Positions 1,556 through 14,106 of a stretch of DNA of 14,363 nt are shown one piece after another. The DNA is from a virus. Lineage: Duplodnaviria; Heunggongvirae; Uroviricota; Caudoviricetes. The stretch lies in the IMG/VR virus record IMGVR_UViG_2681813233_000009; one strand, written 5' to 3'. Position 1 is the stretch's first letter; the number at the start of each line of letters is the position of its first letter. The notes under the pieces were generated by a model. It saw only the letters and a program-made list of their open reading frames with translations. It was not told the origin of the DNA and did not search any database. Made by a program: the position numbers and the translations under genes.

Positions 1556-2578
1556 CTATTCGGAAGTGACTTGGCTTTGCTTTTTTATCGTTCTGGTTTT
1601 CAACATTTCAATCTGGCCAGCTTCGGTTAATGACCAGAAAGTATTCATGCTGCCATTGGTGGTTTTTAAATATTCAATTTTTATCAAACCATATGCCCTA
1701 AATTGCACTCCTATCGTTTTAAGGTCTTGAGAAGATACTTTTGCTGATGTGCCTCCCTTGCCTGCGACCTTTTGAGCGCTTTTGGCAATTGTGTATGATA
1801 CGCTTGATTCAGTATAATATTGAGTGAGATAGGGGGAGATTGAGTGAAAAATATCCTTCCATTTCATTTTCACGGACCAGTGTTTTGTTCCACCGGGATC
1901 ATACCCGATTCGAGGAAAGGTGGACTCACATCTAAATTCAAAATCATCATCAAAGTCAGCCAGATCCAGATCAAGTGTTTGACTAAGATTACTTGTGGCC
2001 TTGGCTAGTTCACTTTTTAACCATTCATTCTCTTTTTGTAAATCAACCATAGCCCGTAAATCAGTTTCAGAAGACGTTAGGTTGGCTCTTACCCATCCGA
2101 TTGCTGGATAAGTTTTCATCGTTTTACTCATACTTAAAGCAACCAACCCGGGTAAATCTTTGGCTGTTGCCCATGTTTTCCTGAGACGATTGGTTGAGGC
2201 CTTCTCTATAAATGCAGCTAGCTTCTCTCTGAGTTCAGAATCTTTTTCAGATTTGGCTAAAGGTAGATTTTCCGGATTCTCATGTACCAAAACAACGACG
2301 CGTAAACCTTTTGAAACTGCGTAATCGAATTCCTTTTCCGTGTAACTTAAACCATCTTCCGCGACAGAGCCATAACGACCACCAATGATCAGCAGATAAT
2401 AATCACAGTCATCAATTACTTTTTTTATGAACTCCCATTGGCCTTCATCGATTGCTGGGAACAACTCCATGCCTGCTGGAATGCAATCCATTTCCATCAG
2501 AGTTTGTATGACGTGTTTTCGTTCTTCTTCTAAATCCGTAAAAGTTGAACTTACGAAAACCTGGTAACGTTTATCCAT
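1556..2578 (-). CDS. Cargo protein, 340 aa, with N-terminal DUF4062-like motif ([16 protein letters not shown]); candidate defense or abortive-infection protein
   Basis: ATG at 2576-2578 (minus) with AAGGGA RBS; uninterrupted 340-codon ORF; visibly more AT-rich than neighbouring genes; N-terminal FVSSTF-DL-EER motif matches my recollection of the DUF4062 family; central coiled-coil-like segment ([28 protein letters not shown]). Domain assignment not verified by HMM. Confidence 0.8.
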
Positions 2579-2584
2579 TTTTAT

Positions 2585-2616
2585 CCCTTAAAAGAGGAAG
2601 GGGCATTAGCCCCTTC
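2585..2616 (-). terminator. Putative intrinsic terminator or attenuator between the small Cys-rich ORF and the cargo gene
   Basis: 8-bp GC-rich stem gaaggggc/gccccttc (2597-2604 with 2609-2616), loop atta; on the minus-strand RNA it is followed by CCUCUUUU, which overlaps the RBS of the downstream cargo gene. Confidence 0.4.
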
Positions 2617-2624
2617 ATTCAACA

Positions 2625-2891
2625 TTAACCAGCGTGACGGTAGGATTCACGCACACCATCACGATAACCATCAGCGAACGCTGCTTGAGGACTTTTGTGG
2701 CGAACGGTTCCCGCCTGGCTATCAGGTAAGGCGGCTAAGTCTACCCAAACCTGACCCGTGCGAGCCAAGCCAGCGCGGTAACCCTGATCGTAAGCGCAGC
2801 CGCAACATTTATGGCGACCTTCACCACCTTGATCGTGAGGTAAGCTGATGAAAAGAGTATTGTAACGGTGTGACTGTTTACAAATGGTCAT
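2625..2891 (-). CDS. Small Cys-rich hypothetical protein, 88 aa (MTICKQSHRYNTLFISLPHDQGGEGRHKCCGCAYDQGY...)
   Basis: Internal ATG at 2889-2891 (minus) preceded by a strong AAGGAG RBS at 6-nt spacing; the longer track ORF (to 3014) has no RBS. GC-richer than the adjacent cargo gene. No family recognised. Confidence 0.5.
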   Translation of the reverse strand: MTICKQSHRYNTLFISLPHDQGGEGRHKCCGCAYDQGYRAGLARTGQVWVDLAALPDSQAGTVRHKSPQAAFADGYRDGVRESYRHAG

Positions 2892-3571
2892 GCAATGCTC
2901 CTTATGAGCGTTCATTTTAAGGTTTACATGATCCTCTTTGCCTGGCACAATCAAGCCGTCAGAAATGAAGGCAAGGCTAAGATTCATACGAGTTTGGCGA
3001 CTCCTATTGGTCATGCTTTGTAAGCCGGGTTCGTGAAAATGAATCCGGTTTTTTTATGCCTAAAAATCAGGCATGGCACTACATGTGGGGGTGGTCAATC
3101 AATGGTGGCCCCACATAGACGATATTCTAGTGATGATTCTTTTCTGCACAAGGGTTGATTTTGACGTTAAATTGAGGTTGTGAAAGGGTAAAAATGCAAA
3201 ACCCTGCACAGCATAAGGCTTGGAAGACATGTCAATGATTAAGAAAAAAAAATCAAAATTTGATCGAGTGCTGATTTCTTCAACGGGAGGTCAGAATTGC
3301 GCGACATGATGTCGCGTAATCTTTATAAGAATAATGAATGGCATTAGTCGTTTTTGATGGTCTCTTGTAACATATAGTTAACATATAGATGTTCGTGAAG
3401 GGAGAAAGGCGCGAAAGGTAAATGTTATCTGGATAGTCTACCAATGCCTGTACCAGTACGAAAAGAGCGCTAATCATACCGAACTTAATCTCATAAAGGT
3501 TTTCACGAGAGCGAAGGACGTTAACGCTAGATTGCGAAACGAAACATTTCATTCTCTTCAATCTTTGGGTA

Positions 3572-3610
3572 ATAAAAAAGGCTGACCCGTTAAGGTCAGC
3601 CTTCTTAAAA
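3572..3610 (-). terminator. Rho-independent terminator ending the minus-strand capsid operon (bidirectional-looking)
   Basis: 8-bp stem ggctgacc/ggtcagcc (3580-3587 with 3594-3601), loop cgttaa; A-run 3572-3579 on plus (U-run after the stem on the minus RNA); ttctt follows on the plus strand. Confidence 0.6.
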
Positions 3611-3622
3611 TCAATGTGTTAC

Positions 3623-3903: not shown

Positions 3904-4923
3904 TTACTTCAGCTTGACGTTCAGCATGTAGTTCGGGCGCAGGTTCAGAGGAATGAAGCTCGCCTCTTGGTGAACGGTCACCATGCCGTAACGGTCAGTC
4001 ATTACTTTTTGGTAGTAAGGGCTGATCACACCTTTAGCGGAGATATCCTGATTACGTGAAGCCGGGCCGCGTACCAGTTTGAACGGGTTACGATCCGCTG
4101 CACTGAACTTTGGAACGAACAGGCCGGAACCTGCCGCGATTTCGTAGCGGTCATCGTCCGCCAGAATGAAAGTAATGTTGCCAATGCTGAAGGAGTCATA
4201 ACCCGCAGTGTTAACCGGGATCAGAGCGCCTTTTGCAGCCTCCGCCACTTTGTTGGTGATCAGGCTGGTTACTTCTGGGTGGCTCGCCAGAACGTCATAC
4301 AGATCCGGGGAGCAGAAGCAATAGAAGCGGTCCAGATAGGAGCGGCTCGCGCCGTACTCTTTAACCAACATGCGGCGAATCTTCGCAAGCTGTGCATAGA
4401 CGTTAGCGCCTGCTGAACCGTCGAGGTCGAAACTCAGCGGAGCAGTACCAAACACAGCGTTAAAATCTACGTCGCCGTCATCCGTTTTAGCCGCTTTCGC
4501 TTCCTGCTTGAACAGGGCGCGGGCCAGTGTGCTTTCAACTGTTTCCAGATGATAGTTACGCATACGGATAGCTTTATCAGCAATAACAGATGTGATCGCC
4601 TGAGCCTGATCCGGGTTAGCCGGGCTTACCAGGCCTTGCCAGTCAGCGGTTTTTACATCCGCCTCAGTGGCATAGTGTGGGATCTCCTGGTTACGCAGGA
4701 TGGTTTTATCCATCATGATCGCGTTAACTTCGGTGCCATAGCGGGCAACCTGCTCCAGTTCACTAACCTGAGTTTCCACAATATCCACAATCTGGGCGTT
4801 TGGAGTGGTTGAGTTAACATCGGAGAAGATACCCAGATCAGAGATCAGGTAATTACCTGCTGGTTGATCTTTGATCGCCGCTACAGTGTCCAGCTTTTCA
4901 AACTGTTTAAAATCAATAGCCAT
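3904..4923 (-). CDS. Putative phage major capsid protein, 339 aa (family not verified)
   Basis: ATG at 4921-4923 (minus), AGGAA RBS; starts 12 bp after the stop of the upstream small gene (small-gene/capsid-gene arrangement as in lambda D-E); A/D/S/T-rich composition typical of virion proteins. Capsid assignment is by context and gestalt, not by alignment. Confidence 0.6.
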   Translation of the reverse strand: MAIDFKQFEKLDTVAAIKDQPAGNYLISDLGIFSDVNSTTPNAQIVDIVETQVSELEQVARYGTEVNAIMMDKTILRNQEIPHYATEADVKTADWQGLVSPANPDQAQAITSVIADKAIRMRNYHLETVESTLARALFKQEAKAAKTDDGDVDFNAVFGTAPLSFDLDGSAGANVYAQLAKIRRMLVKEYGASRSYLDRFYCFCSPDLYDVLASHPEVTSLITNKVAEAAKGALIPVNTAGYDSFSIGNITFILADDDRYEIAAGSGLFVPKFSAADRNPFKLVRGPASRNQDISAKGVISPYYQKVMTDRYGMVTVHQEASFIPLNLRPNYMLNVKLK

Positions 4924-4935
4924 TGTGTGATTTCC

Positions 4936-5307
4936 TTATGCTTTGAAGTAATCGGCGTTGATAGCCAGGCGAATATCACCGGAGGCTGTCAGCGCTTCCA
5001 GTGCGGCTTTTTTGCTCGCGGCGTCTTTAGCACGTAGGGCAAAATCGGTAATCACAACATGGCGATCCACGATAACCAGCGTTTTAGTCTTGCCATCGGC
5101 GGACATATTGGAAAGGTTAATGATCGGCTTGCCAGCTTCAGCGGCGGCGGAGTCGAACAGGGCAAAAGTTTTGCTGTCCAGAATATCGCCACAGTAGACG
5201 TCAGCCGGGAGGCTTGGGGCGGTTACTTCGGTGCGGTCAAACAGGCTGGAGGCGTAGTTGACGATTACGTCACCTTGCGTTACCGGGTAGCGCTCGGAAG
5301 TTTTCAT
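4936..5307 (-). CDS. Putative head decoration or capsid-associated protein, 123 aa
   Basis: ATG at 5305-5307 (minus) with AAGGAAAA RBS; the track ORF extends to 5451 but lacks an RBS there; tightly coupled (12 bp) to the downstream capsid gene. Confidence 0.5.
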   Translation of the reverse strand: MKTSERYPVTQGDVIVNYASSLFDRTEVTAPSLPADVYCGDILDSKTFALFDSAAAEAGKPIINLSNMSADGKTKTLVIVDRHVVITDFALRAKDAASKKAALEALTASGDIRLAINADYFKA

Positions 5308-5437
5308 AAAGGTTTTCCTTATGGAGGGTTTTAGACGTGGAGAGAGTCCACAGGATGATCCGGCGTTGCACCGAATATAAGGACCGCCACAGAGGACAAT
5401 CCGAATTGTTGGAAGATGGGAGGCCGTGGATTGAATA

Positions 5438-5467
5438 GAAGAGGGCGGCATCCGCGCCGCCCTTTCT
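5438..5467 (-). terminator. GC hairpin with flanking U-rich tracts upstream of the capsid operon (possible leader terminator)
   Basis: 7-bp stem gggcggc/gccgccc (5443-5449 with 5456-5462), loop atccgc; tttct follows on plus, and tcttctatt follows on the minus RNA; lies about 135 bp upstream of the decoration-gene start. Confidence 0.4.
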
Positions 5468-6551
5468 AATCTGGCTCTCTCTCACCCTCGCGGGTGGGGA
5501 AGGATATTTATCCTTTTGTGTGGATACTTGCCGCCCCTGGTGGCGTCACGTCGAATAGCACCAACCTTTTGGCAAATACCCACAAAAAAGAACCCGGCTG
5601 GAGGAACCGGGGTGGACAATGTAACTTACTGTATGATCACTTGTTTTCCTGTGTAGCCTCAGAGCCTTACATGATTTGCTTTCATGGTTCAGCAAAGAAG
5701 CCACAGAGGAAAACGGGCACCCTGAACGCGCCCGGAAACCATCGACGCAAATCAATAGTTTATCGTTGAGACCAGGTAACCAGCCCGGCCCAACTGTGAC
5801 CCCGTGGAGGGTCGATACAATTGAAGGAGATTCGCTTGTATTCTGAAGAGCCGCAGTTAGCGACGCTTTAGAATAGGGCCTGTGGCGCAAGCACTATGAT
5901 TAGAGGCGTTTTGAATCGTAGGAGTGAAACAATCGGCGGAACTTGAGGAGAGGACCGCACACAAAGCATTCTGGCAAGTGGAGTTGAAAGAACACTTTGG
6001 GTGAGGGCCGGGGCGGGGGAGAAGCCGCCCGGCTCACTCAGTACAGATCCTAATTGCACACGTTGCGACTCTGTACAGGTGGGGGGCGTGACAAGCTGCA
6101 AAACGGTAATTTCGATATCCTCGCCACACCCCACACCATGTATATTAGTTTAACACGAATGATTATCATTTGCAATAAAAATTAATTGCATTGTGTTGAG
6201 TCTTATGATATTGGCGGCCACACACGTGACGGATCAGATCTGCATTAATTTTTATTAGTGAGTGGTCTGACTCAGGGAGGGCTATGTGTCCCAAAAGACA
6301 CACGAAGTAATAATAGATATATAAGACCTCGCTACGCTCGCCCTCCGGGTCCGTCTTATTGATCTTATATAATAACTTCATTCAATAACTAATTGTTTTC
6401 ACAATTAATCATTTCATTCGTTATTATATGATCTTAAAACCTTCTCGCCCTTTGGGCTTACCAGGTTTTAGGCCGGGGCCTATTTCCCCACAATGTAGAG
6501 TCTCGCCTGTGTGGCTCATCTCCCGGGGGGCATTTTGAAACAAGGGTGTAC

Positions 6552-6612
6552 TGACAAAATGTCACAACGTGTTATGACAGATTGGCACAACGTGTTATGA
6601 CAAAATGTCACA
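6552..6612. promoter_or_regulatory. Cluster of dyad-symmetric repeats (operator- or iteron-like)
   Basis: 17-mer cacaacgtgttatgaca occurs twice (6563-6579 and 6586-6602), 6 bp apart; 15-mer tgacaaaatgtcaca occurs twice (6552-6566 and 6598-6612); each unit is itself a near-palindrome (TGACA-aaa-TGTCA; TGTCAcAACG/tGTTaTGACA). Confidence 0.5.
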
Positions 6613-7052
6613 TAATAAGATAAGTATATAAAACACCCTTAAAAGACAAACACCTAGGGCCAGGTCAAGATCTTAAAGAGATTGAGGGTGAATTATTGAT
6701 TGAACAATCAAGAGATCAGACTCTTTAGGAAAGAGCCTTACAGGCTCGCCTCCCTTTTGGGGCAATCGCAGAAACAGAAACCGCAACGCGGTTTTCTTTT
6801 CTGCTCTTTGGGAACACCGGAACGATGTGAAGGTGACATCTGGGCGGCGGGGTGGGGTGCCCGGCGCGGAGTGATACACAGTACAGAACCACAACCCACA
6901 GGAACCAACCTAAACGCGCCTCTGTGGCGCTCTCTCATATGCAGACACGGAAACACCTTATAAACACCCTGCGCCTCACTGAGAGCGTTACAGCGGCTTT
7001 CTATGCCTCTAGCACAATAAACAACTGAGCGCAAGATAAATCAAGAAAGTTG

Positions 7053-7081
7053 TTGCGAATCATTGTCAAATAGTGTAAAAT
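7053..7081 (+). promoter_or_regulatory. Candidate sigma70 promoter for the plus-strand operon
   Basis: TTGCGA (7053-7058), 17-bp spacer, TAAAAT (7076-7081), about 75 bp upstream of the ATG at 7156. Read by eye only. Confidence 0.3.
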
Positions 7082-7155
7082 AGATACTGTGATGAGGTAT
7101 TTATTCGAATATATAGATCCCCATCATACTATAACAAACATGAAAGGAGATTGCA

Positions 7156-7581
7156 ATGAGTATTTACCTCGATGTTGAAAAAATGGTTGAACGTGTCGAT
7201 CAGCGTGACCTGACCCGTAAGACCCTGACAGAAACCCGTAGCCGAATGAAAGCCGCCGGACGTATGGGAGAAGTTGAAGCGATTACGCAGGCCCTTGAAA
7301 TGACCAAATCAAAAGCATCCGGCGTCATGCGACAGTCTCAACGTATCGCTGCAAAGATCACCGAGATGGACGCAGAGAAAGCACTTGAAGTTAAAGCAGC
7401 CGTTTCGCTGTTCGCTTCCAAGTCTACAGACATGCAAGCCTCCATTGTGCTGGCGTTCCAATCCCTCTTTGAGGCTAAAGGCGTCCCGATGGAATACGAC
7501 GAAGTGATGGCTTTTATCATGCTGCAAGCGGCGGATCAGTTTGAGCGTATCACCGGAGAGTTGCCCGTTATCGTTCACTAA
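7156..7581 (+). CDS. Hypothetical protein, 141 aa
   Basis: ATG with AAAGGAGA RBS; first gene of a co-directional, tightly packed gene string; no family recognised. Confidence 0.7.
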   Translation: MSIYLDVEKMVERVDQRDLTRKTLTETRSRMKAAGRMGEVEAITQALEMTKSKASGVMRQSQRIAAKITEMDAEKALEVKAAVSLFASKSTDMQASIVLAFQSLFEAKGVPMEYDEVMAFIMLQAADQFERITGELPVIVH

Positions 7582-7610
7582 TTATTCATTTACTTTTTGG
7601 AGAGGAAACA

Positions 7611-7862
7611 ATGAGCAAATATCAGCCGTATGTTGATTTGAGTGATTCCCCTGTGTTGTCGGCGTATGCACAGCAGACGATCAACCAGTTGGACCCAACC
7701 CTGTACGATGACATTTACGAAATGTTGAAGCAGGTTAGTCCCTCCAAGTTGGTGACGATTGGCAACCCGGCGATCACCGCCCCGGCGTCATGGTGGGGTG
7801 ATTGGTTCGGCCTCAACCTCACCGCTGAAGACATCGCAGAATTACAGGAGATTGATCTCTAA
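7611..7862 (+). CDS. Hypothetical protein, 83 aa
   Basis: ATG at 7611 with GGAGAGGA RBS; its stop overlaps the next start (TAATG). Confidence 0.65.
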   Translation: MSKYQPYVDLSDSPVLSAYAQQTINQLDPTLYDDIYEMLKQVSPSKLVTIGNPAITAPASWWGDWFGLNLTAEDIAELQEIDL

Positions 7863-8041
7863 TGCAGATTGAATTTTCCCCCGAAGTGGCGGATCAGCTT
7901 TTTGAGTTGGCCCGCACAAGGAAGCACGGCTCCGCCTACGCAATCGTAAGAAAAGCAGTTAAGCAGTATTTGGATTCAGTTGAAGCTATTAACCCTGTTG
8001 AAGAGGATTTAACCCATGACCGCAGCACCCGCAGCAAGTAA
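7862..8041 (+). CDS. Small ribbon-helix-helix-like DNA-binding protein, 59 aa (absent from the ORF track)
   Basis: ATG at 7862-7864 overlapping the upstream stop (TAATG); translation MQIEFSPEVADQLFELARTRKHGSAYAIVRKAVKQYLDSVEAINPVEEDLTHDRSTRSK has an RHH-like strand-helix-Gly-helix pattern; overlaps the next gene by 26 nt in another frame. Confidence 0.5.
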   Translation: MQIEFSPEVADQLFELARTRKHGSAYAIVRKAVKQYLDSVEAINPVEEDLTHDRSTRSK

Positions 8042-8681
8042 GCCGTTTACCGCAATCCCGCATGACCTTGCGGACATTGAACAGATCAGCGGTAAGGCGT
8101 TTACCATGAACATGGTTTACACCTACAGCCTGATCAAATCCTTCCAGGACAATGGGCAAACGGCTTATTTCTCACAGGAGCTTTTGGCCCGTCGCCTGGG
8201 GGCATCCATCCGCAGCGTGATCCGCCTCCTGGCGGAGATGGTGGAAATGGGATTGATCAATAGTACCGGGCGCGTGGGTGGCAAGACCTGCCATTACACA
8301 GTTAACCCGATCACCCCGGAAATGGTGGGAACCCCTGAAGCCGCCAAACCTGAAGTAACCAAACCAACCGCAGCACCCCAACCCGTGGAGACCGTAGAGA
8401 ATGCAGGAAGTAACCAGCCTGGAATTGTTAAGTGTGGATCTGAAAGCGTACATAGAAGCCGCCCGGCGTCGTCTGGAGTTGCTCCTGTGGACCACAGCGG
8501 GGGCGCTGTTCGTCCCGCTCCTGTCCCTGTGCCAGTAGAGCAGGGGGCCGCAAACGATGATTTACGTAACCCTGTTATTAATTATGTGGCTGGCTCTAAT
8601 GTGATGATGGTCAACGGTTTGCCTGTTGAATATCTGGAGCCAGAAGAAAGCGGCATTGATCAGTTTGGTGATGCCTTCTAA
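8016..8681 (+). CDS. Putative winged-helix DNA-binding protein, 221 aa (replication initiator or regulator candidate)
   Basis: ATG with GAGGA upstream; HTH/winged-helix-like segment FSQELLARRLGASIRSVIRLLAEMVEMGLINSTGRVGG; Pro/Ala-rich linker and acidic C-terminal tail (EPEESGIDQFGDAF). Confidence 0.7.
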   Translation: MTAAPAASKPFTAIPHDLADIEQISGKAFTMNMVYTYSLIKSFQDNGQTAYFSQELLARRLGASIRSVIRLLAEMVEMGLINSTGRVGGKTCHYTVNPITPEMVGTPEAAKPEVTKPTAAPQPVETVENAGSNQPGIVKCGSESVHRSRPASSGVAPVDHSGGAVRPAPVPVPVEQGAANDDLRNPVINYVAGSNVMMVNGLPVEYLEPEESGIDQFGDAF

Positions 8682-8757
8682 AAATCTGCGATTGATTTCC
8701 CACTAATAACACTCTACACAAAACCCCCGCCGTTTACAACCCTTTGGAGATTCTCGC

Positions 8758-9324
8758 ATGAATAACTTTATCACTACTAAATTCAACGCCTTAACCTCCG
8801 AAGAGGAAGCCGCAGTAAATGCACTGGCGGAGAAATTAGCAGCAAACAAGCCCCGTCGGATTATGGATGAGAGCCATTTGACCCCGGATCAAATCCTGAA
8901 GATCAAGCGGGCCTGTATTCAGGGCCACAGCGCTAAAGCCATCCAAGCGGCCTTTAACGTGTCGCTGGCTTACGTCCTGAGAGTAAAGCGCTCCCACAAC
9001 CCTAAGAAGTACCAGAAGACCCCGCTCACCTTGCCAGAAAAGGCAGTGTTGGCCCAGCAGATGGACGCCGATAATTTGAGCTTGGATAAAATGGCGGAAC
9101 TTCTGGGGATCAACAGTAAGATGGTTTCCCTACTTCTTACCCAACCTTCACCCCGTTACCTGGTGGAGCAAATGCTCCCGTATGACCAAGTTTTACAGAA
9201 CCTCCGCAGCGCCCGCTACGTGGAAAGCCCTGTATACAAAAAAGGGACGAGTATGCGCCGTGTGCGACTGATCGTTTCTGAAGCTCGTCAGCAGGCCCGC
9301 CAGGCAATCATTAAATCCCGGTAA
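8758..9324 (+). CDS. Putative HTH-containing protein, 188 aa
   Basis: ATG with GGAGA RBS 8 nt upstream; two HTH-like segments (LTPDQILKIKRACIQGHSAKAIQAAFNVSLAYVLRVK; LSLDKMAELLGINSKMVSLLL). Function unverified. Confidence 0.65.
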   Translation: MNNFITTKFNALTSEEEAAVNALAEKLAANKPRRIMDESHLTPDQILKIKRACIQGHSAKAIQAAFNVSLAYVLRVKRSHNPKKYQKTPLTLPEKAVLAQQMDADNLSLDKMAELLGINSKMVSLLLTQPSPRYLVEQMLPYDQVLQNLRSARYVESPVYKKGTSMRRVRLIVSEARQQARQAIIKSR

Positions 9325-9495
9325 TTATGTCCAACCCAACGGAATGGGACCTAAAGGATTACTTAGGTTCCAAACTGGTTAAGCGTCAGACAAGACTCTC
9401 TAACTTTCTCGCCCCCTTCCTCTATATCCCCTTTAAGCCCGCTTCCCTCCTCCTGTGGGTAGTGGTAATCACTTTCATTATAAGGACTCTCTCAA

Positions 9496-9870
9496 ATGCA
9501 CCCCTTTGAACTACTGAAACGCCAGCTTGACGAAATGGCGAAATCCCGCCAGGTAGAGCAGGCCCAAGAGGAAGCCGCCGCCCGTGAACTCCGCAAGGCA
9601 CAGGCCGATCTCTCCCTGGACGAGGCTATTGCTCTGTACGGTACACAGTTGGAAGCCTCCACCGATGCAGCAGACAGCGCCCAGAAGGGCCGCGCCATTA
9701 AGAGCCGGGGAATTGCTCTGTGTCACAAGGATCAGGGATTCAGCGCCAACGGTCGCCCTGTGTCTCTCCTGACCAAATCAGCAGATCTGCCAGCAGGTCA
9801 CCGCCGGGTAATCATCAACAAAGCAGCAGGGCGCACCCTGAAGGCTATCAATCTGGAAGGGGCTGAATAA
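9496..9870 (+). CDS. Hypothetical protein, 124 aa, translationally coupled to the tape-measure-like gene
   Basis: ATG at 9496 with AAGGA RBS; its stop overlaps the next ATG (TAATG at 9868-9872). Confidence 0.6.
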   Translation: MHPFELLKRQLDEMAKSRQVEQAQEEAAARELRKAQADLSLDEAIALYGTQLEASTDAADSAQKGRAIKSRGIALCHKDQGFSANGRPVSLLTKSADLPAGHRRVIINKAAGRTLKAINLEGAE

Positions 9871-11990
9871 TGAGCGGTAACGTCATCATCACGAAGACCG
9901 TAAACAGAACTACGTTCACCACGGACGGGGCCAGCTATAAGAAGACGGTTGACCGTATCAAACAGGTGGGGAAAGAGTGGGATAAAGTCTCCTCTAAAAT
10001 GAAGCCTCTACGGATGAAATTTGAGGAAAACGCCTACACCAAGATCCGCCGGAAACAGCAGGACGCCACCGCAAAAGCAGCACTGGCAGAAGCCAAAGCC
10101 AAAGCCGCAGCGGAAGCCAAAGCGGCAAAAGCCCAACTAGCAGCGGAGCGTAAACTCCAGACAATCCGCGCTAAAGCTATTCGCTTTAATACCGCAGCGG
10201 CTAACGCCAACGTTACCCCGGCCCAACGTGCTGGACACCTCCAGGAGTTTGGACAGCTTACGCGCCAGTATCACGCCGGGTCTATGGCATTACAGGAATA
10301 TAACGCCCGTGTGTCACGCCTTCAGCAAACCATGCGCCAACAAGGCCGGGTAGGCATGAGGGGAGCCACAATTCCCGTAACCGCCAAAGTAAACAAACTG
10401 GATACCTCCATGATCGAGGGTGCAGGCGGGGCGATCACAATTGCCGCCACTGTGGCACTCTCCGGCAAGATCATGACTACCGGACAGGATTTTGAATCCG
10501 CTATGTCTGGTCTTACAGCGATCACCGGTTCCACAGAAAAAGCCGGGAAAGAGTTTGATTATCTTCGTGAACAGTCCAACCGTCTGGGGCTGGACCTTCT
10601 GAAAACTTCAAAAGACTATACGCAGTTTGCCGCCGCTGTTGGGGACAAACTCCCTAAAGACCAGATGCGATCCATCTTTGAGGGTGCTTCAGAGTGGGGC
10701 CTTGTTACTGGTGCATCCGCAGATGAGCAATCACGTGCGTTAAAGGCCCTTAACCAGATGATGTCTAAGGGTACGGTCATGAGTGAAGAACTTAAAGGCC
10801 AGTTGTCCGAGGCTCTCCCCGGCTCTGTGGGTCTGTTCGTTAAAGCCCTTAACGACATGAAAGGCGTTACCAACCTGACCGAGCAAGATTTGTTTAAGCT
10901 GATGGAAGACGGGAAGCTGTTCTCTAAGGACATCCTCCCACATGTGGCTAAACAGATGAAGGAAGCGGCCCGGCAGGGTGGCGCACTTGATAAGGCGATG
11001 AAGTCCAACCGGGCATCATGGCAGCGCCTCAATACCAGTATGCAGAACGCTATGAATGTGTTTTTCACTTCTGGCTTCGGTAACTCCCTTACCAACGCTT
11101 TCGACTCAATCAGCGCCGCTATTGACGGATCTGGTGGAGCCTTTGAGATGTTCGGGCATATCGCCGGGAAAATCGTTGAAGGTGCCACAGATGCGTTTAC
11201 AGAGTTGCATGACACTGTGATCCTGACCTTCCGCATTATTGAGTATTACGCCGCCAAAATGGGGATCAGTGGGGAGCAGCTCAAAGCCTGGGGAGAAATG
11301 GCAGCATATGCCGCCGGGGTGGCTCTGTTCGCTGGCTCTGTTTACAAGTTGGGCGGGGCTTTCAAGTGGGTCCTCACCATGCTGAACCCTCTTACCAAGT
11401 TGTTGGGAGTCATGAAGGGGATCGCCGCTATTGGTGGCATTGAGGCCGCTTCTGAAGCTCTGAGCGACGGTAAGCCAGGTAAAGACGGCCAGCCGGGCAA
11501 ACCGGGAACCCCATCAAAGAACACCAAGCCGATCGGCGCGGGCCGTGGCGTTAACTTTGGCCTCCCGGCTATTATCGCCGCTGTATCTCTGAATGACCGC
11601 CTTGATCAGATTCAGGCAGACCCGGAAGCGTTTAAGCGAAAGGTACAGGAGAATAATGATCGGCCTACGCTGTGGACTGACATCATGGAAGCATTCTCCG
11701 GCAGTTGGTACGAAAAGCAGCAGAACGCAAACCAGCAGGCAGCACAGACCGCAGCACTCGATCAGACTGTTCGTGTTGCTGTTCCAACCTTCATCCCTCC
11801 AACCACAGCGACGGTTACAGGTGGCTACGGTAATCCACTGATGACGCCGCCAGCGTGGCTAAACCAGCCGCTAAACGTGAGCGTTAATGTGAAGGTGCAA
11901 GATGGACAGGTGAAAAACCTTGTGCAATCTGAGATTGAACGTAATGAACAGGCGGCATTTAACATGCTGATGCAGGGCGGGCCAAACTAA
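9870..11990 (+). CDS. Phage tail tape-measure-like protein, 706 aa
   Basis: N-terminal Ala/Lys-rich coiled-coil (AKAALAEAKAKAAAEAKAAKAQLAAERKL); central segment LKGQLSEALPGSVGLFVKALNDMKGVTNLTEQDLFKLMEDGKLFSKDILPHVAKQMKEAAR resembles the conserved tape-measure motif as I recall it; hydrophobic Gly/Ala-rich segments; collagen-like GKPGKDGQPGKPGTP; followed by a terminator. Confidence 0.8.
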   Translation: MSGNVIITKTVNRTTFTTDGASYKKTVDRIKQVGKEWDKVSSKMKPLRMKFEENAYTKIRRKQQDATAKAALAEAKAKAAAEAKAAKAQLAAERKLQTIRAKAIRFNTAAANANVTPAQRAGHLQEFGQLTRQYHAGSMALQEYNARVSRLQQTMRQQGRVGMRGATIPVTAKVNKLDTSMIEGAGGAITIAATVALSGKIMTTGQDFESAMSGLTAITGSTEKAGKEFDYLREQSNRLGLDLLKTSKDYTQFAAAVGDKLPKDQMRSIFEGASEWGLVTGASADEQSRALKALNQMMSKGTVMSEELKGQLSEALPGSVGLFVKALNDMKGVTNLTEQDLFKLMEDGKLFSKDILPHVAKQMKEAARQGGALDKAMKSNRASWQRLNTSMQNAMNVFFTSGFGNSLTNAFDSISAAIDGSGGAFEMFGHIAGKIVEGATDAFTELHDTVILTFRIIEYYAAKMGISGEQLKAWGEMAAYAAGVALFAGSVYKLGGAFKWVLTMLNPLTKLLGVMKGIAAIGGIEAASEALSDGKPGKDGQPGKPGTPSKNTKPIGAGRGVNFGLPAIIAAVSLNDRLDQIQADPEAFKRKVQENNDRPTLWTDIMEAFSGSWYEKQQNANQQAAQTAALDQTVRVAVPTFIPPTTATVTGGYGNPLMTPPAWLNQPLNVSVNVKVQDGQVKNLVQSEIERNEQAAFNMLMQGGPN

Positions 11991-12004
11991 CCGCCAATAT
12001 AATA

Positions 12005-12031
12005 AAGGCTCCCCTAGTGGGAGCCTTTTCT
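12005..12031 (+). terminator. Rho-independent terminator after the tape-measure-like gene
   Basis: 7-bp stem ggctccc/gggagcc (12006-12012 with 12018-12024), loop ctagt, followed by ttttctctttt. Confidence 0.6.
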
Positions 12032-12060
12032 CTTTTATACATTTCTAATGTCCTGGCTTT

Positions 12061-12627
12061 TCATAACAGATCCGCTATTGAATATTTATCACTAAAATCA
12101 TCTACTTTGCGTTGTGTGGCCCCAATGTAATGAAGCGTACTGGATAACGATTTGTGCCCTAATGCTTTACTAATTACAGCTATATCCTCCCCATTGTCAT
12201 AACCAATCGTTGGTTTACTCTTCCTCATGCTGTGGGTCGAAAGATTCAGCCCCAGCTTTTCCCCGGCGTAGCTAATTTCCTCATGCAATTTGGAGCGGCT
12301 CACAGGTTTTCCCTTGCTCCTGTGGCTGTCCAACTGTAAGAGGTACACATTATCAGGGTTAGCCTCTCTCCGGGCCGCTATGATGCGTTTAGCGGTATCG
12401 GTAAGCCTCACCCGGACAGATTCACCCGTTTTCTGTTGGGACAGGACAAGGTGATCGCCTTTGATGTCGGCATAACGGATAGAGCGCAGATCCGACACCC
12501 TCAGCATTAATTCATAACCCAATAACCAGGCGTCACGGTACAGCGTCAGCCCCTTGCCCTGTTTGAGTAGCTCAACTGCTACCGCTTTCACTTCCTGAAC
12601 TGATTTACAGCCCTCTACGAAATTCAT
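12061..12627 (-). CDS. Small tyrosine recombinase, catalytic domain only (FimB/FimE-sized), 188 aa
   Basis: ATG at 12625-12627 (minus) with GGAGAG RBS; the track ORF begins at an upstream TTG without an RBS; motifs LRVSDLRSIRYADI (Arg), HSMRKS (His-x-x-Arg), LGHKSLSSTLHY (His and Tyr). Confidence 0.8.
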   Translation of the reverse strand: MNFVEGCKSVQEVKAVAVELLKQGKGLTLYRDAWLLGYELMLRVSDLRSIRYADIKGDHLVLSQQKTGESVRVRLTDTAKRIIAARREANPDNVYLLQLDSHRSKGKPVSRSKLHEEISYAGEKLGLNLSTHSMRKSKPTIGYDNGEDIAVISKALGHKSLSSTLHYIGATQRKVDDFSDKYSIADLL

Positions 12628-13020
12628 TCTGTACTCTCCAGAACCTAACTGTGATAAATTTTTGATCAAAAACAAGCACTTGTAAACGACAAAAATTATT
12701 AATTTTAAGTTGTGTCTTTTTAGTGAATTAAATCGGGTTTAATCGCGTTTAATGGCAGAGTAATGACCCGGCAGGGGAGGTAATGGGCTGTTTATGTGGG
12801 TAAAAGATGGTTGCTTAATGTACTATTACCACAAGACGGGTAAGGTGATTTGACTCCCTCAGTTCCTTTAAGCTACTGTATTTATGGGAAATTAATTATT
12901 GTTTCTTTATGGTGTTGCCTGGCAAATTTTCAGTTTACCCTCAAGAAAAATCCCCATCTTTTTTATTCTCCACATGAGAATAAATTTTGTTTGCAAATAT
13001 CACTCATTCTCAACTCCAGT

Positions 13021-13199
13021 CGGGGCGAAAGCCTTCGCCCCTTAAAGGGCCTTTGTAGGCTCGCTCTCTGTATGCGCCTGTGGCGCTACCACTCTCAACC
13101 CTGTGGGTTTGTATGGCTTGCCACAAGATAACGCGCCACAGGCGCACAGGGGAGGCGGACGCCTCCTGGGTGGCCCGGCTGGGCCACTGGTCCACAGGG
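13021..13199. other. GC-rich structured non-coding segment (multiple hairpins and a paired palindrome)
   Basis: Hairpin ggggcgaa/ttcgcccc (13022-13041); palindromes gcgcctgtggcgc (13074-13086) and its exact reverse complement gcgccacaggcgc (13133-13145); hairpins ggaggcg..cgcctcc and ggccc..gggcc (13150-13185); the only ORFs here lack RBS and context. Confidence 0.35.
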
Positions 13200-13588
13200 T
13201 AAAAGGACAGAATGGTATTGTGTTGTTATTAAGTTGTTGAGATTAAAGGGATGTCTTAGGGGGGACTGTAGTGGAGGAAGGTTGGGCAGGGTTTAATCAG
13301 AATGCAGGTCACTCGGCAGGGAGTGCCCTTAGATATTTGGCGAAAATACACGTGACCCCCCAGGGCCTCAGGTTGAAGGGCCTAGCAACAATATCCAAAC
13401 TCCCGGATATTTTCCCACCCAACTGGAAGGAATCCGCCCCTATTTTCTGTTCGTGTATAAGTTAGGCTGAGGGAGGCTTGCCAATGTACACCCCCTGGAT
13501 TTGGTGATCTGTTAAGTTATTGATTTTGATCGATTTTAGATCAATCATCCGTTGCCGGGATTACCCCCACCCAGACGGATGGCACACA

Positions 13589-13771
13589 ATGAATAACGAT
13601 AAAGCAAACCACCCTAAACACTTCCAATACTTGGGCCGCATGGTCACTGTTTACCCTACATACATCATTATTGACGGTATCAAGATTAGCCGTTCCCGTC
13701 TTTCCTTTGCATTCCAATTGGAATTGGCAAAAGCACTTCGACTGCATGAAGAAAGCGTATGCAGAAAATAG
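13589..13771 (+). CDS. Hypothetical small protein, 60 aa (alternative TTG start at 13520 gives 83 aa)
   Basis: ATG at 13589 with a weak GGA-containing RBS; followed by a strong terminator; no family recognised. Confidence 0.35.
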   Translation: MNNDKANHPKHFQYLGRMVTVYPTYIIIDGIKISRSRLSFAFQLELAKALRLHEESVCRK

Positions 13772-13807: not shown

Positions 13808-13832
13808 AAGCCGCCTTATGGGCGGTTTTTTT
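13808..13832 (+). terminator. Rho-independent terminator
   Basis: Stem ccgcc/ggcgg (13811-13815 with 13821-13825), loop ttatg, followed by a 7-T run (13826-13832). Confidence 0.6.
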
Positions 13833-13981
13833 GTGCCTGCCATTTATCTGTGGGTCACAACGTGAGACACAAACTGGGACACAGAGGATTTTTTAGGGTT
13901 GAGTCTTTGGCTTCCCGCTGGCATGATCCAGAACAGGGATTAACGGGACGTTAATCGCAAGCTTTTGATTTTGTTTTATTT

Positions 13982-14106
13982 GACTCGGGGTGCCCTTCTG
14001 CGTGAAGGCTGAGAAATACCCGTATCACCTGATCTGGATAATGCCAGCGTAGGGAAGTCACGGACCACCAGGTCATTGCTTCTTCACGTTATGGCAGGAG
14101 CAAACT
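13982..14106 (+). promoter_or_regulatory. TPP (THI-box) riboswitch of thiM: aptamer plus expression platform
   Basis: Sequence gactcggggtgcccttctgcgtgaaggctgagaaatacccgtatcacctgatctggataatgccagcgtagggaag matches the E. coli thiM TPP aptamer as I recall it (including the conserved CUGAGA element); it runs into the thiM RBS (aggag at 14096-14100). Confidence 0.9.
14033..14052. repeat. attR-side copy of att core, lying inside the TPP aptamer
   Basis: Identical to positions 1-20. Confidence 0.7.

Follow-up and report, generated by a model that had tools for sequence, protein, structure and literature searches.

In the satellite P4, the ori/crr iterons and the seqA/seqC targets of the CI RNA are repeated in two distant non-coding regions, and the immunity and regulation of this satellite rely on RNA, rather than on a repressor protein. 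Folded, single-stranded sites of tyrosine recombinases are represented by the attC of the integrons and the attP hairpin of the CTX phage, and the origins of the lambda type contain iterons, which are dyad-symmetric repeats bound by the O protein. The element considered here is the motif GCGCC-N3-5-GGCGC, which is present in three copies in the 14,363-nt stretch of the virus record IMGVR_UViG_2681813233_000009, referred to here as the window, in which position 1 is the first letter. One of the copies stands on its own in the left-hand non-coding region, and the other two belong to a cluster of hairpins on the right, referred to as the right element. The motif and the right element represent an uncatalogued instance of a familiar kind, in which hairpin modules are conserved within the non-coding, regulatory DNA that a mobile element carries, and their role would most likely lie in the shaping or ending of non-coding transcripts.

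The motif copies and their composite module

The three matches to the motif compare with an expectation of 0.04, and none of 200 dinucleotide-preserving shuffles reached this number. The copies are located at 6916-6930 (GCGCCTCTGTGGCGC, hairpin L), 13074-13086 (GCGCCTGTGGCGC, R1), and 13133-13145 (GCGCCACAGGCGC, R2), which are the positions given by the original prediction, made from the sequence of the window, when it described three instances as being far in excess of chance. The further claim that the last two are exact reverse complements, 46 bp apart, is also borne out, with the 46 nt that separate R1 from R2 being found at 13087-13132. A search allowing for one mismatch recovered a single additional near-copy, GGGCCTGTGGCGC at 5876-5888, which lies within another helix of a large RNA candidate, described below.

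All the motif copies recur at homologous sites in relatives from at least five genera (Escherichia coli, Pectobacterium, Kosakonia, Enterobacter, and Cronobacter), and in metagenomes. A genome-wide count had been proposed as a means of recognizing a generic host repeat, and the right-hand region was found in 32 of 5426 E. coli genomes, once per genome in each. With one site per positive genome, a dispersed host repeat of the repetitive extragenic palindromic (REP), bacterial interspersed mosaic element (BIME), or miniature inverted-repeat transposable element (MITE) kind was rejected. A 16-mer scan of viral contigs returned mostly chance matches, and one apparent weak relative (L012) falls within an open reading frame (ORF) of 948 aa; the scan of the metagenomes for the right element yielded nothing beyond close relatives and three GC-rich inverted repeats that are unrelated to it.

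Both loci also share a companion 10-mer, AACCCACAGG, which is found at 6893-6902, with its complement, CCTGTGGGTT, at 13100-13109, that is, one base to the right of the site (13099-13108) to which it had been assigned. The original prediction had dismissed this pair as chance, a judgment that is contradicted by its spacing, given that the 10-mer stands 13 nt from the hairpin at both loci (spacers at 6903-6915 on the left and 13087-13099 on the right), in mirrored orientation. The left and right loci are therefore inverted copies of a composite module of approximately 36-38 nt, laid out as the hairpin, 13 nt, and CCTGTGGGTT, which goes beyond the sharing of a palindrome. When L is read on the minus strand and the right-hand locus on the plus strand, the common layout is a GC hairpin, 13 nt, CCUGUGGGUU, and a U/G-rich tail. 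The left 10-mer is less well preserved in the relatives, in which it may read AAGCAGCAGG or AACCCGCAGG.

Hairpin L (GCGCC-TCTGT-GGCGC, or GCGCC-ACAGA-GGCGC on the minus strand) has five G-C pairs, and is an isolated hairpin that stands by itself, its loop being free to vary. Seven relatives share an invariant stem, with a loop of TCTGT, GCTAT, or GCTGT, and the hairpin has degenerated in the most divergent island (L004) only. The unequal spacing of the arms in the different copies (3 versus 5 nt) and the variable loop on the left fit a hairpin, rather than a fixed site in double-stranded DNA. Conservation extends to the flanks CCTAAAC and T(C/T)T(C/T)TC, and the GTTTAGG of the flank formed by the 10-mer and the spacer (6893-6915, minus strand) is invariant in the relatives; the minus-strand reading of this flank gives the U/G-rich tail GUUUAGGUUGGUU, then CCUGUGGGUU. 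On this strand, L is followed by GUUUAGGUUGG, and was flagged as terminator-like by the scan. On the plus strand, the tail of the hairpin is UCUCUCAU in the window and UUUUUCAU in E. coli, and the T-rich tract on the 3' side (6931-6940) reads TCTCTCATAT in the window, TTTTTCATAC in the E. coli relative L001, and TTTCTCATAC in L005, L007, and L008; the T-rich tract that follows L on the plus strand in E. coli is TTTTTCAT.

Structure, variation, and predicted transcription of the right-hand cluster

The right-hand region (13010-13215) folds at approximately -103 kcal/mol on either strand, in comparison with approximately -76 to -81 kcal/mol in shuffles, and the z-scores of these approximately 200 nt are -5.0 on the plus strand and -5.5 on the minus strand. 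In the minimum-free-energy folds of both strands, R1 pairs with R2 over 13 bp, and the two do not form separate hairpins. In this modelled fold, R1 and R2 are the complementary arms of a single helix of 13+4 bp, the trunk of a cluster of approximately 190 nt (13022-13209), which is assigned to the plus strand by its wobble bias only. The long stem-loop (13068-13149) combines the R1:R2 pairing with that of CTGT at 13068-13071 and ACAG at 13146-13149, and encloses the 46-nt junction. This helix closes a three-way junction with two small inner hairpins, an invariant AACCC-TGT-GGGTT of five pairs at 13097-13109, which contains the complement of the 10-mer and is followed by a T-rich tail on the plus strand, and CTTG-CCA-CAAG at 13117-13127 (plus strand). 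The remaining hairpins are H1 (13022-13041) and H2 (13047-13062) on one side of the trunk, and H5 (13152-13167), H6 (13170-13189), and a weak H7 (13191-13209) on the other.

A total of 22 copies of the right element were collected, 18 of which provided the 12 distinct sequences that were aligned. When the structure was imposed on the 12 sequences, 98.8% of the cells were paired, as opposed to 38-48% when the partners were slid, and 16 of the 17 pairs of the long helix never vary. Variation is found in 22 of the 37 hairpin-loop columns, but only 20 of the 114 stem columns (Fisher p = 3e-6), a contrast that persists (p = 7e-5) after the exclusion of the columns fixed by the search pattern. On the basis of this alignment, it is the stems of the cluster, and not the loops, that are under constraint. 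The loops change in sequence, length, and orientation while the stems stay, with AGCC, GGCT, or ATTC in the loop of H1 and GGAC or GTCC in that of H5, and loop deletions shorten H6 in L004 and H5 in L064, both of which still pair; H2 is deleted in Cronobacter. The TGT and ACA triplets of R1 and R2 never vary, unlike true loops, an invariance that fits the mutual pairing of these apparent "loops". The right element is approximately 90% identical in L004, in which the neighboring proteins are only 38-66% identical, and is better conserved than its flanks.

Two of the loops (13030-13033 and 13158-13161) are swapped for their exact reverse complements (AGCC to GGCT and GGAC to GTCC), as seen in the homologous loops of L005/L007, L001, and L060, and these flips read as the signature of a template-switch or cruciform-type inversion at perfect inverted repeats.

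All five of the stem pairs that vary give G·U or U·G on the plus strand, where the minus strand would have A×C, as in the hairpin at 13117-13127, in which CAAG has become TAAG in three distinct sequences. This bias provides a modest argument for the plus strand as the one that folds.

The right element is absent from three sister satellites with the same gene set (L008, L052, and L053), and a search with its profile that covered 100 kb of phage CR8, the phage hubs (see below), and the more distant satellites found no match. The Rfam 15 covariance models, run on the window at E-values of up to 1, recovered only a thiamine pyrophosphate (TPP) riboswitch and a sub-threshold match to HrrF, both elsewhere, and no family was recovered from the phage hub or a Serratia island.

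Promoter-like sites are found at an almost equal distance from the two loci. On the left, the site TTGCAA-17-(TG)TATAGT (7156..7128, minus strand), with a -10 box that is nearly invariant in the relatives, has a predicted start at approximately 7121, 191 nt upstream of L. On the right, the site TTGACT-18-TACTGT (12850-12879, plus strand; TATTGT in E. coli and Cronobacter) has a predicted start at approximately 12886, 188 nt upstream of R1, and the homologous site was flagged in L001 and L049, with a -35 hexamer that is invariant in the alignment. Downstream of this start on the plus strand come, in order, the hairpin cluster, a hub-like segment, an ORF of 60 aa, and a terminator (13808-13828, plus strand). 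The 60-aa ORF (13589-13771, plus strand, from Met24 of the ORF 13520-13771) is conserved, with tblastn identities of 75-99% in the relatives, and is an annotated coding sequence in E. coli. Terminator-type stems of at least 5 bp are provided by L (five pairs), R2 with its flanks (seven pairs), and the inner hairpin at 13097-13109 (five pairs). At least five T in eight, as required by the scan, follow L on the minus strand, R2 in the recombinase sense, and the inner hairpin of the relatives in the plus orientation, in tails that are a mixture of U and G (GUUUAGGUUG, UAUCUUGUGG, and UGUAUUGCUU), and the inner hairpin was flagged as terminator-like, in the plus orientation of the window, in L001, L002, and L049.

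The left-hand site is arranged face-to-face with the promoter-like site of the plus-strand operon (7053-7081), and the transcripts predicted for this segment (7053-7156) would overlap by approximately 30 nt, with no repressor ORF on the leftward side. Face-to-face promoters are known from the lysis-lysogeny switches of P2/186.

At a probability of approximately 0.4, the favored reading of the motif copies is that they are RNA-level hairpins, acting as terminator, attenuator, or leader modules. The copies would be structural hairpins of a single-stranded nucleic acid, most likely RNA, in two outward and mostly non-coding transcripts. The leftward transcript would start at approximately 7121, antisense to the first 30 nt or so of the early-operon transcript, and would end at L, approximately 200 nt downstream, while the rightward transcript, from approximately 12886, would carry the cluster as a long structured leader. 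This leader may stop at the inner hairpin and its U-rich tail (approximately 13110-13120), or continue into the ORF of 60 aa and as far as the terminator (13808-13828). As modules of termination, attenuation, or stability, the hairpins would set the transcription that leaves the central replication/tail block. Such a reading would explain the conserved stems and free loops, the unequal length of the loops, the layout shared on opposite strands, the equal distance from the promoters, and the wobble bias of one strand.

The RNA reading is also favored, in part, because the same island holds another structured RNA candidate, one with covariation. This candidate, of approximately 760 nt on the minus strand (5440-6200), lies upstream of the decoration and capsid genes in the largest non-coding stretch, and its signal may reach approximately 6670. 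The z-scores of sliding 150-nt windows on the minus strand between 5400 and 6670 are approximately -3 to -5.9 in most windows, with a few near zero, in comparison with approximately -0.5 to -1.5 on the plus strand (5475-6224), and the RNAalifold consensus of eight relatives reaches -233 kcal/mol on the minus strand versus -184 kcal/mol on the plus strand. Compensatory double changes are found in 24 of 234 pairs, against 6.4±1.9 in shuffles (a count of 24 was attained by none of 500) and 3-8 in controls with slid partners, and three terminator-like hairpins with U tracts are present (5734..5714, 5611..5593, and 5463..5442). This stretch, which has no match in Rfam, is a much stronger RNA candidate than the motif hairpins.

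A number of observations weigh against the RNA reading of the motif. No thermodynamic signal is found around L (z = +1.2 to +1.4 at 6825-6974), nor in the putative 246-nt leftward RNA (z = -0.7). None of the 57 pairs of the right element has a compensatory double change, as a result of which its structure is supported, but not proven, and the conservation of the primary sequence could account for the invariance of R1, R2, and the inner hairpin. Neither strand folds better than the other, and the choice of strand rests on five substitution types (p of approximately 0.03-0.06, one- and two-sided), while the flipped loops are a mutational signature of inverted repeats at the DNA level, and are uninformative on RNA. 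The -10 box of the 12850-12879 site matches at only three of six positions in the window, which is why the promoter scan of the window omitted this site. The promoters and transcript ends are predicted, the tails of the hairpins are U-rich, yet not canonical U-tracts, and R2 was also flagged as terminator-like on the recombinase-sense strand, in the window and three relatives. The earlier suggestion of RNA hairpins in a structured transcript, which fares better than that of recognition sites for the recombinase, is partly supported, by the stable fold and by stems that are steadier than the loops. R1 and R2 are not independent hairpins, however, but pair with each other, no compensatory change is found, and the transcription is only predicted.

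Other RNA-based interpretations were rejected. The right element as the 3' untranslated region of the tape-measure operon was discarded because a strong, bidirectional 10-bp terminator (12004-12028) lies in between, separating the convergent tape-measure and recombinase genes. A resemblance of 12841-12876 to a pseudo-ToxI-like RNA was also discarded, with an alignment to the annotated pseudo-ToxI of phiTE that was no better than those of shuffles. Antitermination hairpins of the nut/boxB or put type would have to lie within the leaders of both early operons, whereas L is approximately 125 nt upstream of the 7053-7081 site, and the right-hand copies are 350-500 nt upstream of the recombinase promoter.

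Alternative explanations of the hairpins

Of the alternatives, the one that survives best, although it is still rather unlikely, is a folded single-stranded or cruciform DNA element involved in the replication or packaging of the satellite, such as a single-strand initiation (ssi)/primosome signal or part of an origin on a scaffold derived from the helper phage, with L as a simpler second copy. A satellite that lacks a terminase and has no replicase, save for an O-like domain, needs cis sites, and the right non-coding region is colinear with a non-coding "hub" of the Certrevirus phages, with the hairpins occupying the position at which the phage has its CATTCTCAT repeats, clustered beside an AT-rich tract; an AT-rich stretch adjoins both modules. 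The strand-specific tolerance of G·T would fit one folded DNA strand equally with RNA, both strands fold equally well, and the loop flips indicate DNA-level activity of the inverted repeats. The homology with the hub is nevertheless limited to the flanks and excludes the hairpins, the element is missing from the sisters that have the same gene set, and the obvious initiator or repressor sites are elsewhere, in the hypervariable repeats at 6546-6612, which track the variable HTH_36 protein.

The hub is a conserved non-coding region of 1.5 kb, located between convergent blocks of small genes in every Certrevirus genome examined (358-1878 in L042 and 297-1821 in L045). Its features are several TTGAC(A/T) boxes, at least six repeats of the CATTCTCAT type, an AT-rich tract, a perfect inverted repeat of 18 bp, and a number of GC hairpins, among them GCGCC-GGA-GGCGC; no tRNA was found in it, and the record of phage PBES 02 begins inside it. 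Downstream of the cluster, the segment 13332-13472 (plus strand) matches hub positions 1154-1293 by blastn against POP15, and by nhmmer in both the window (E = 8e-8) and L004 (E = 6e-11). The AT-rich segment upstream of the cluster (12900-13010, plus strand) has a weak resemblance to hub positions 754-860 (nhmmer E = 0.02 in L004), with the short matches TTTGCCAGGCAA and ACTCATTCTCA. The hairpin units themselves have a suggestive resemblance, to the eye and in blastn-short (E = 0.13 and 3.3), to the hub units AGGGTTGAGAGT..TAGCG-hairpin-TACAG and GGGAGGGCGCGCC-GGA-GGCGCG, but a homology was not supported by the profile search, which matched the flanks only.

A distinctly unlikely interpretation is that of palindromic operators or enhancer-like sites in double-stranded DNA, with a CC-ACA-GG core, recognized by a protein of the satellite or its helper (the candidate being a conserved 188-aa HTH-like protein encoded at 8758-9324) and controlling the two nearby promoters. 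The 7-mer CCACAGG/CCTGTGG is enriched five-fold, with ten copies (5348, 5879, 6896, 8484, 9452, 12319, 13077, 13100, 13136, and 13192) versus 1.9 expected, a number that none of 200 shuffles reached. Four of the copies lie within 125 bp on the right (13077-13198), two of them 23 bp apart, with a spacing of 24 bp on the left; both modules are upstream of promoter-like sites, and the TGT/ACA triplets of R1, R2, and the inner hairpin are invariant. In the Serratia island L052, eight copies are found in the left non-coding region (1721-3614), including a run just upstream of the early operon. The arms of the sites differ (GCGCC, AACCC, and GGTCC), and yet each is self-complementary, which suggests pairing, rather than the readout of a common sequence, and the left copy has a center of 5 nt, which in most of the relatives (GCTAT) is without the CCACAGG core. 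Nor are the copies that lie in coding regions preserved in the divergent island L004.

Better candidates for operators or iterons are the three 21-nt repeats, GTGTTATGACAAAATGTCACA, at 6546-6612, each of which has a palindrome, with a period of 23; the palindromic repeat found at this position differs in each of the relatives. The divergence of the repeats parallels that of the O-like HTH_36 protein, which is 58-75% identical among the relatives, as opposed to 90-98% in its neighbors, and they are likely to be specificity-determining iterons or operators. A role of CCACAGG or the hairpin motif as the iterons of the O-like initiator was rejected because the motif is invariant and, unlike the 21-nt repeats, shows no covariation with the initiator, and because the arms differ between sites.

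It is very unlikely that the copies are target sites of the adjacent tyrosine recombinase, whether as double-stranded sites of inversion, deletion, or dimer resolution, or as folded sites of the attC or CTX attP type. The original prediction had considered recognition sites for this small recombinase, which is encoded at 12061-12627 on the minus strand (188 aa from Met17 of an ORF of 204 aa; Pfam Phage_integrase, E = 1.5e-16), behind a promoter-like site at 12686..12658. Its homologues also have 188 aa, and the full set of catalytic residues (R..K..HxxR..H..Y) is present in the translation. The gene has the right element 400-550 nt upstream of it, this element is present in every island with a recombinase that is more than 85% identical, and L008 lacks the recombinase, the right element, and any CCACAGG alike. 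In addition, L and the right-hand copies are inverted around the 6.2-kb central block, and the conserved stems, free loops, and one-strand wobble tolerance resemble the logic of attC.

Several points weigh against the recombinase. The arms of 5 bp are 3 or 5 nt apart, the 13-bp arms of R1 and R2 are 46 bp apart, and the asymmetric crossover spacer of 6-8 bp is missing, so that a core site of the lox, FRT, dif, or fim inverted-repeat type was rejected. The RYYYAAC/GTTRRRY core of the integron attC or CTX attP is also absent, and the flanks CTAAAC/GTTTAGG and GATAAC/GTTATC do not fit it. The enzyme consists of the catalytic domain only, scores far below the cut-offs of the XerA/XerC/XerD-type models, and is no integron integrase. 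The assemblies of the E. coli genomes and of about a dozen other, independent relatives are all colinear, and revealed no inversion or deletion between motif copies, and the junctions of the sole deletion remnant (L071, E. coli), from the N-terminus of the integrase to the terminator downstream of the recombinase gene, lie away from the motif. The Serratia islands, with a recombinase that is 77-79% identical, have no copy of the motif or the right element, and the reading as recombinase sites is not supported.

The Serratia islands have a different hairpin-rich stretch instead, from which no alignment with the right element was obtained, although it contains a GC stem with an ACA triloop, GGCGC-ACA-GCGCC, a likeness that would favor a link with the recombinase. 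Their cassette (L052 9016-10567 and L053 9103-10567, corresponding to 12061-13250 of the window) has the opposite orientation relative to the tape-measure operon, another point on the side of the recombinase, and is ordered as a conserved ACACAAT..ATTCTGTC block, the hairpin-rich stretch, a promoter, and the 188-aa recombinase; L054 keeps a lone remnant of the cassette. What remains, on the comparison of these islands, is an apparent association at the level of the module, in which a hairpin-rich stretch travels with the recombinase cassette.

The absence of any dedicated function is highly improbable. The palindromes would then be leftovers of duplication or template-switching in a GC-rich spacer, kept by short divergence, and most of the relatives have diverged by just 5-15%, with no compensatory changes and with loop flips that testify to the mutational activity of the repeats. 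The element nevertheless exceeds its flanks in conservation, and has retained approximately 90% identity in L004, where the proteins have fallen to 38-66%, the contrast between the stems and the loops is significant, and the hairpins persist through the loop-shortening indels of L004 H6 and L064 H5. It is likewise highly improbable that the cluster belongs functionally to the cassette of approximately 1.6 kb that encodes the catalytic-domain-only recombinase, and occurs in either orientation in different lineages of satellites, and that it serves as a folded single-strand DNA substrate or RNA cofactor directing this minimal recombinase, which, if true, would be a structure-guided tyrosine recombinase system in a phage satellite.

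The host island and its comparison with described systems

The window is an integrated island of approximately 14 kb, inserted in the TPP riboswitch of thiM and bounded by 20-bp direct repeats. Bases 1-20 (the attL core) are repeated exactly at 14033-14052 (the attR core), within the TPP riboswitch (13976-14072) that precedes thiM in the E. coli relatives. The 5' part of this riboswitch is supplied by the island, and an inverted near-copy of the 20-bp core is found at 13916-13937. The integrase (108-1463) is followed by a slot (1556-3014) with a DUF4062 gene and a gene for a 129-aa PHROG-3941 protein. This slot varies among the relatives, and is occupied by an ATP-dependent nuclease in an E. 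coli relative, which suggests that it may be a cargo position for defense genes. Genes for a major capsid protein of the lambda E type and a D-like decoration protein follow on the minus strand (3904-5451), and a plus-strand operon (7156-11990) encodes the O-like HTH_36 replication-initiator domain and the tape-measure protein (9496-11990).

The gene list of the island contains a tape-measure gene, but no terminase, portal, or tail genes, and because of this the island resembles a phage satellite; apart from the O-like initiator domain, it has no replicase. Among phage proteins, the tape-measure protein is best matched by the tape measures of the Certrevirus (37-38% identity), and the homologue of a 124-aa protein in the relatives carries the Pfam domain Phage_phiTE_211. 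The stretch 6279-6427 resembles a divergent-promoter region of the Certrevirus, with 73-89% identity, over 76-155 bp, to DNA of these phages that is intergenic or has no annotation, at no more than two places per phage, and its counterpart in CR8 separates two divergent genes. Within this stretch, a hairpin (AAGACC..CTCGCCC..GGG..GTCTT) precedes a TATAAT-like box, and the stretch may represent promoter mimicry of the helper. From its gene content and these similarities, the island looks like a satellite of the lytic Certrevirus phages (phiTE/CR3/CR8/POP15), and one that is apparently undescribed, given that a literature search found no published description of such a satellite. Its relatives occur in E. 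coli, Pectobacterium, Kosakonia, Enterobacter, Cronobacter, and Serratia, and in IMG/VR contigs and metagenomes.

The hairpins mark two of the three long non-coding stretches of the island, which total approximately 3 kb, or a fifth of its length. If the modules end or gate the outward transcripts, they would help to explain how the satellite stays silent and responds to its helper without a recognizable repressor gene. The 190-nt cluster and the covarying RNA of approximately 760 nt would join the few cases of satellites that rely on structured RNA. The right element also provides a sharp, single-copy marker for the recovery of this family of satellites.

In comparison with known systems, the modules are similar to intrinsic terminators and leader attenuators in their short GC stems and U-rich tracts, located between transcription units at a fixed distance downstream of promoter-like sites, and in their conserved stems and free loops. 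They differ in that the tails are U/G-rich, the left stem has only 5 bp, and the right hairpin is an arm of a longer helix, in a cluster of six or seven hairpins that exceeds the needs of termination; unlike the leader attenuators, no alternative (anti-terminator) pairing was identified here. The attC and the CTX attP share with the right element an imperfect long inverted repeat with a variable center, a premium on structure over loop sequence, a tolerance of mismatches on one strand, and an adjoining recombinase gene. The enzyme of the island, however, is a protein of 188 aa, with the catalytic domain only, no R/L box consensus or pattern of extrahelical bases was identified here, and no recombination products were found in any of the relatives. 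As in the lambda-type origins, dyad-symmetric sites are found approximately 23 bp apart beside an AT-rich tract, and an O-like initiator domain is encoded by the same element, but the arms differ between the sites, and the sites do not co-vary with the divergent initiator, in contrast with the repeats at 6546-6612. The elements of P4 are direct octamer repeats or antisense target boxes, whereas those of the island are inverted, self-complementary hairpins, and the island has neither an Rfam match to the C4/CI RNA nor a primase-helicase gene of the alpha type. What it shares with P4 is the presence of the same short element in two non-coding regions, several kilobases apart, in a phage satellite.

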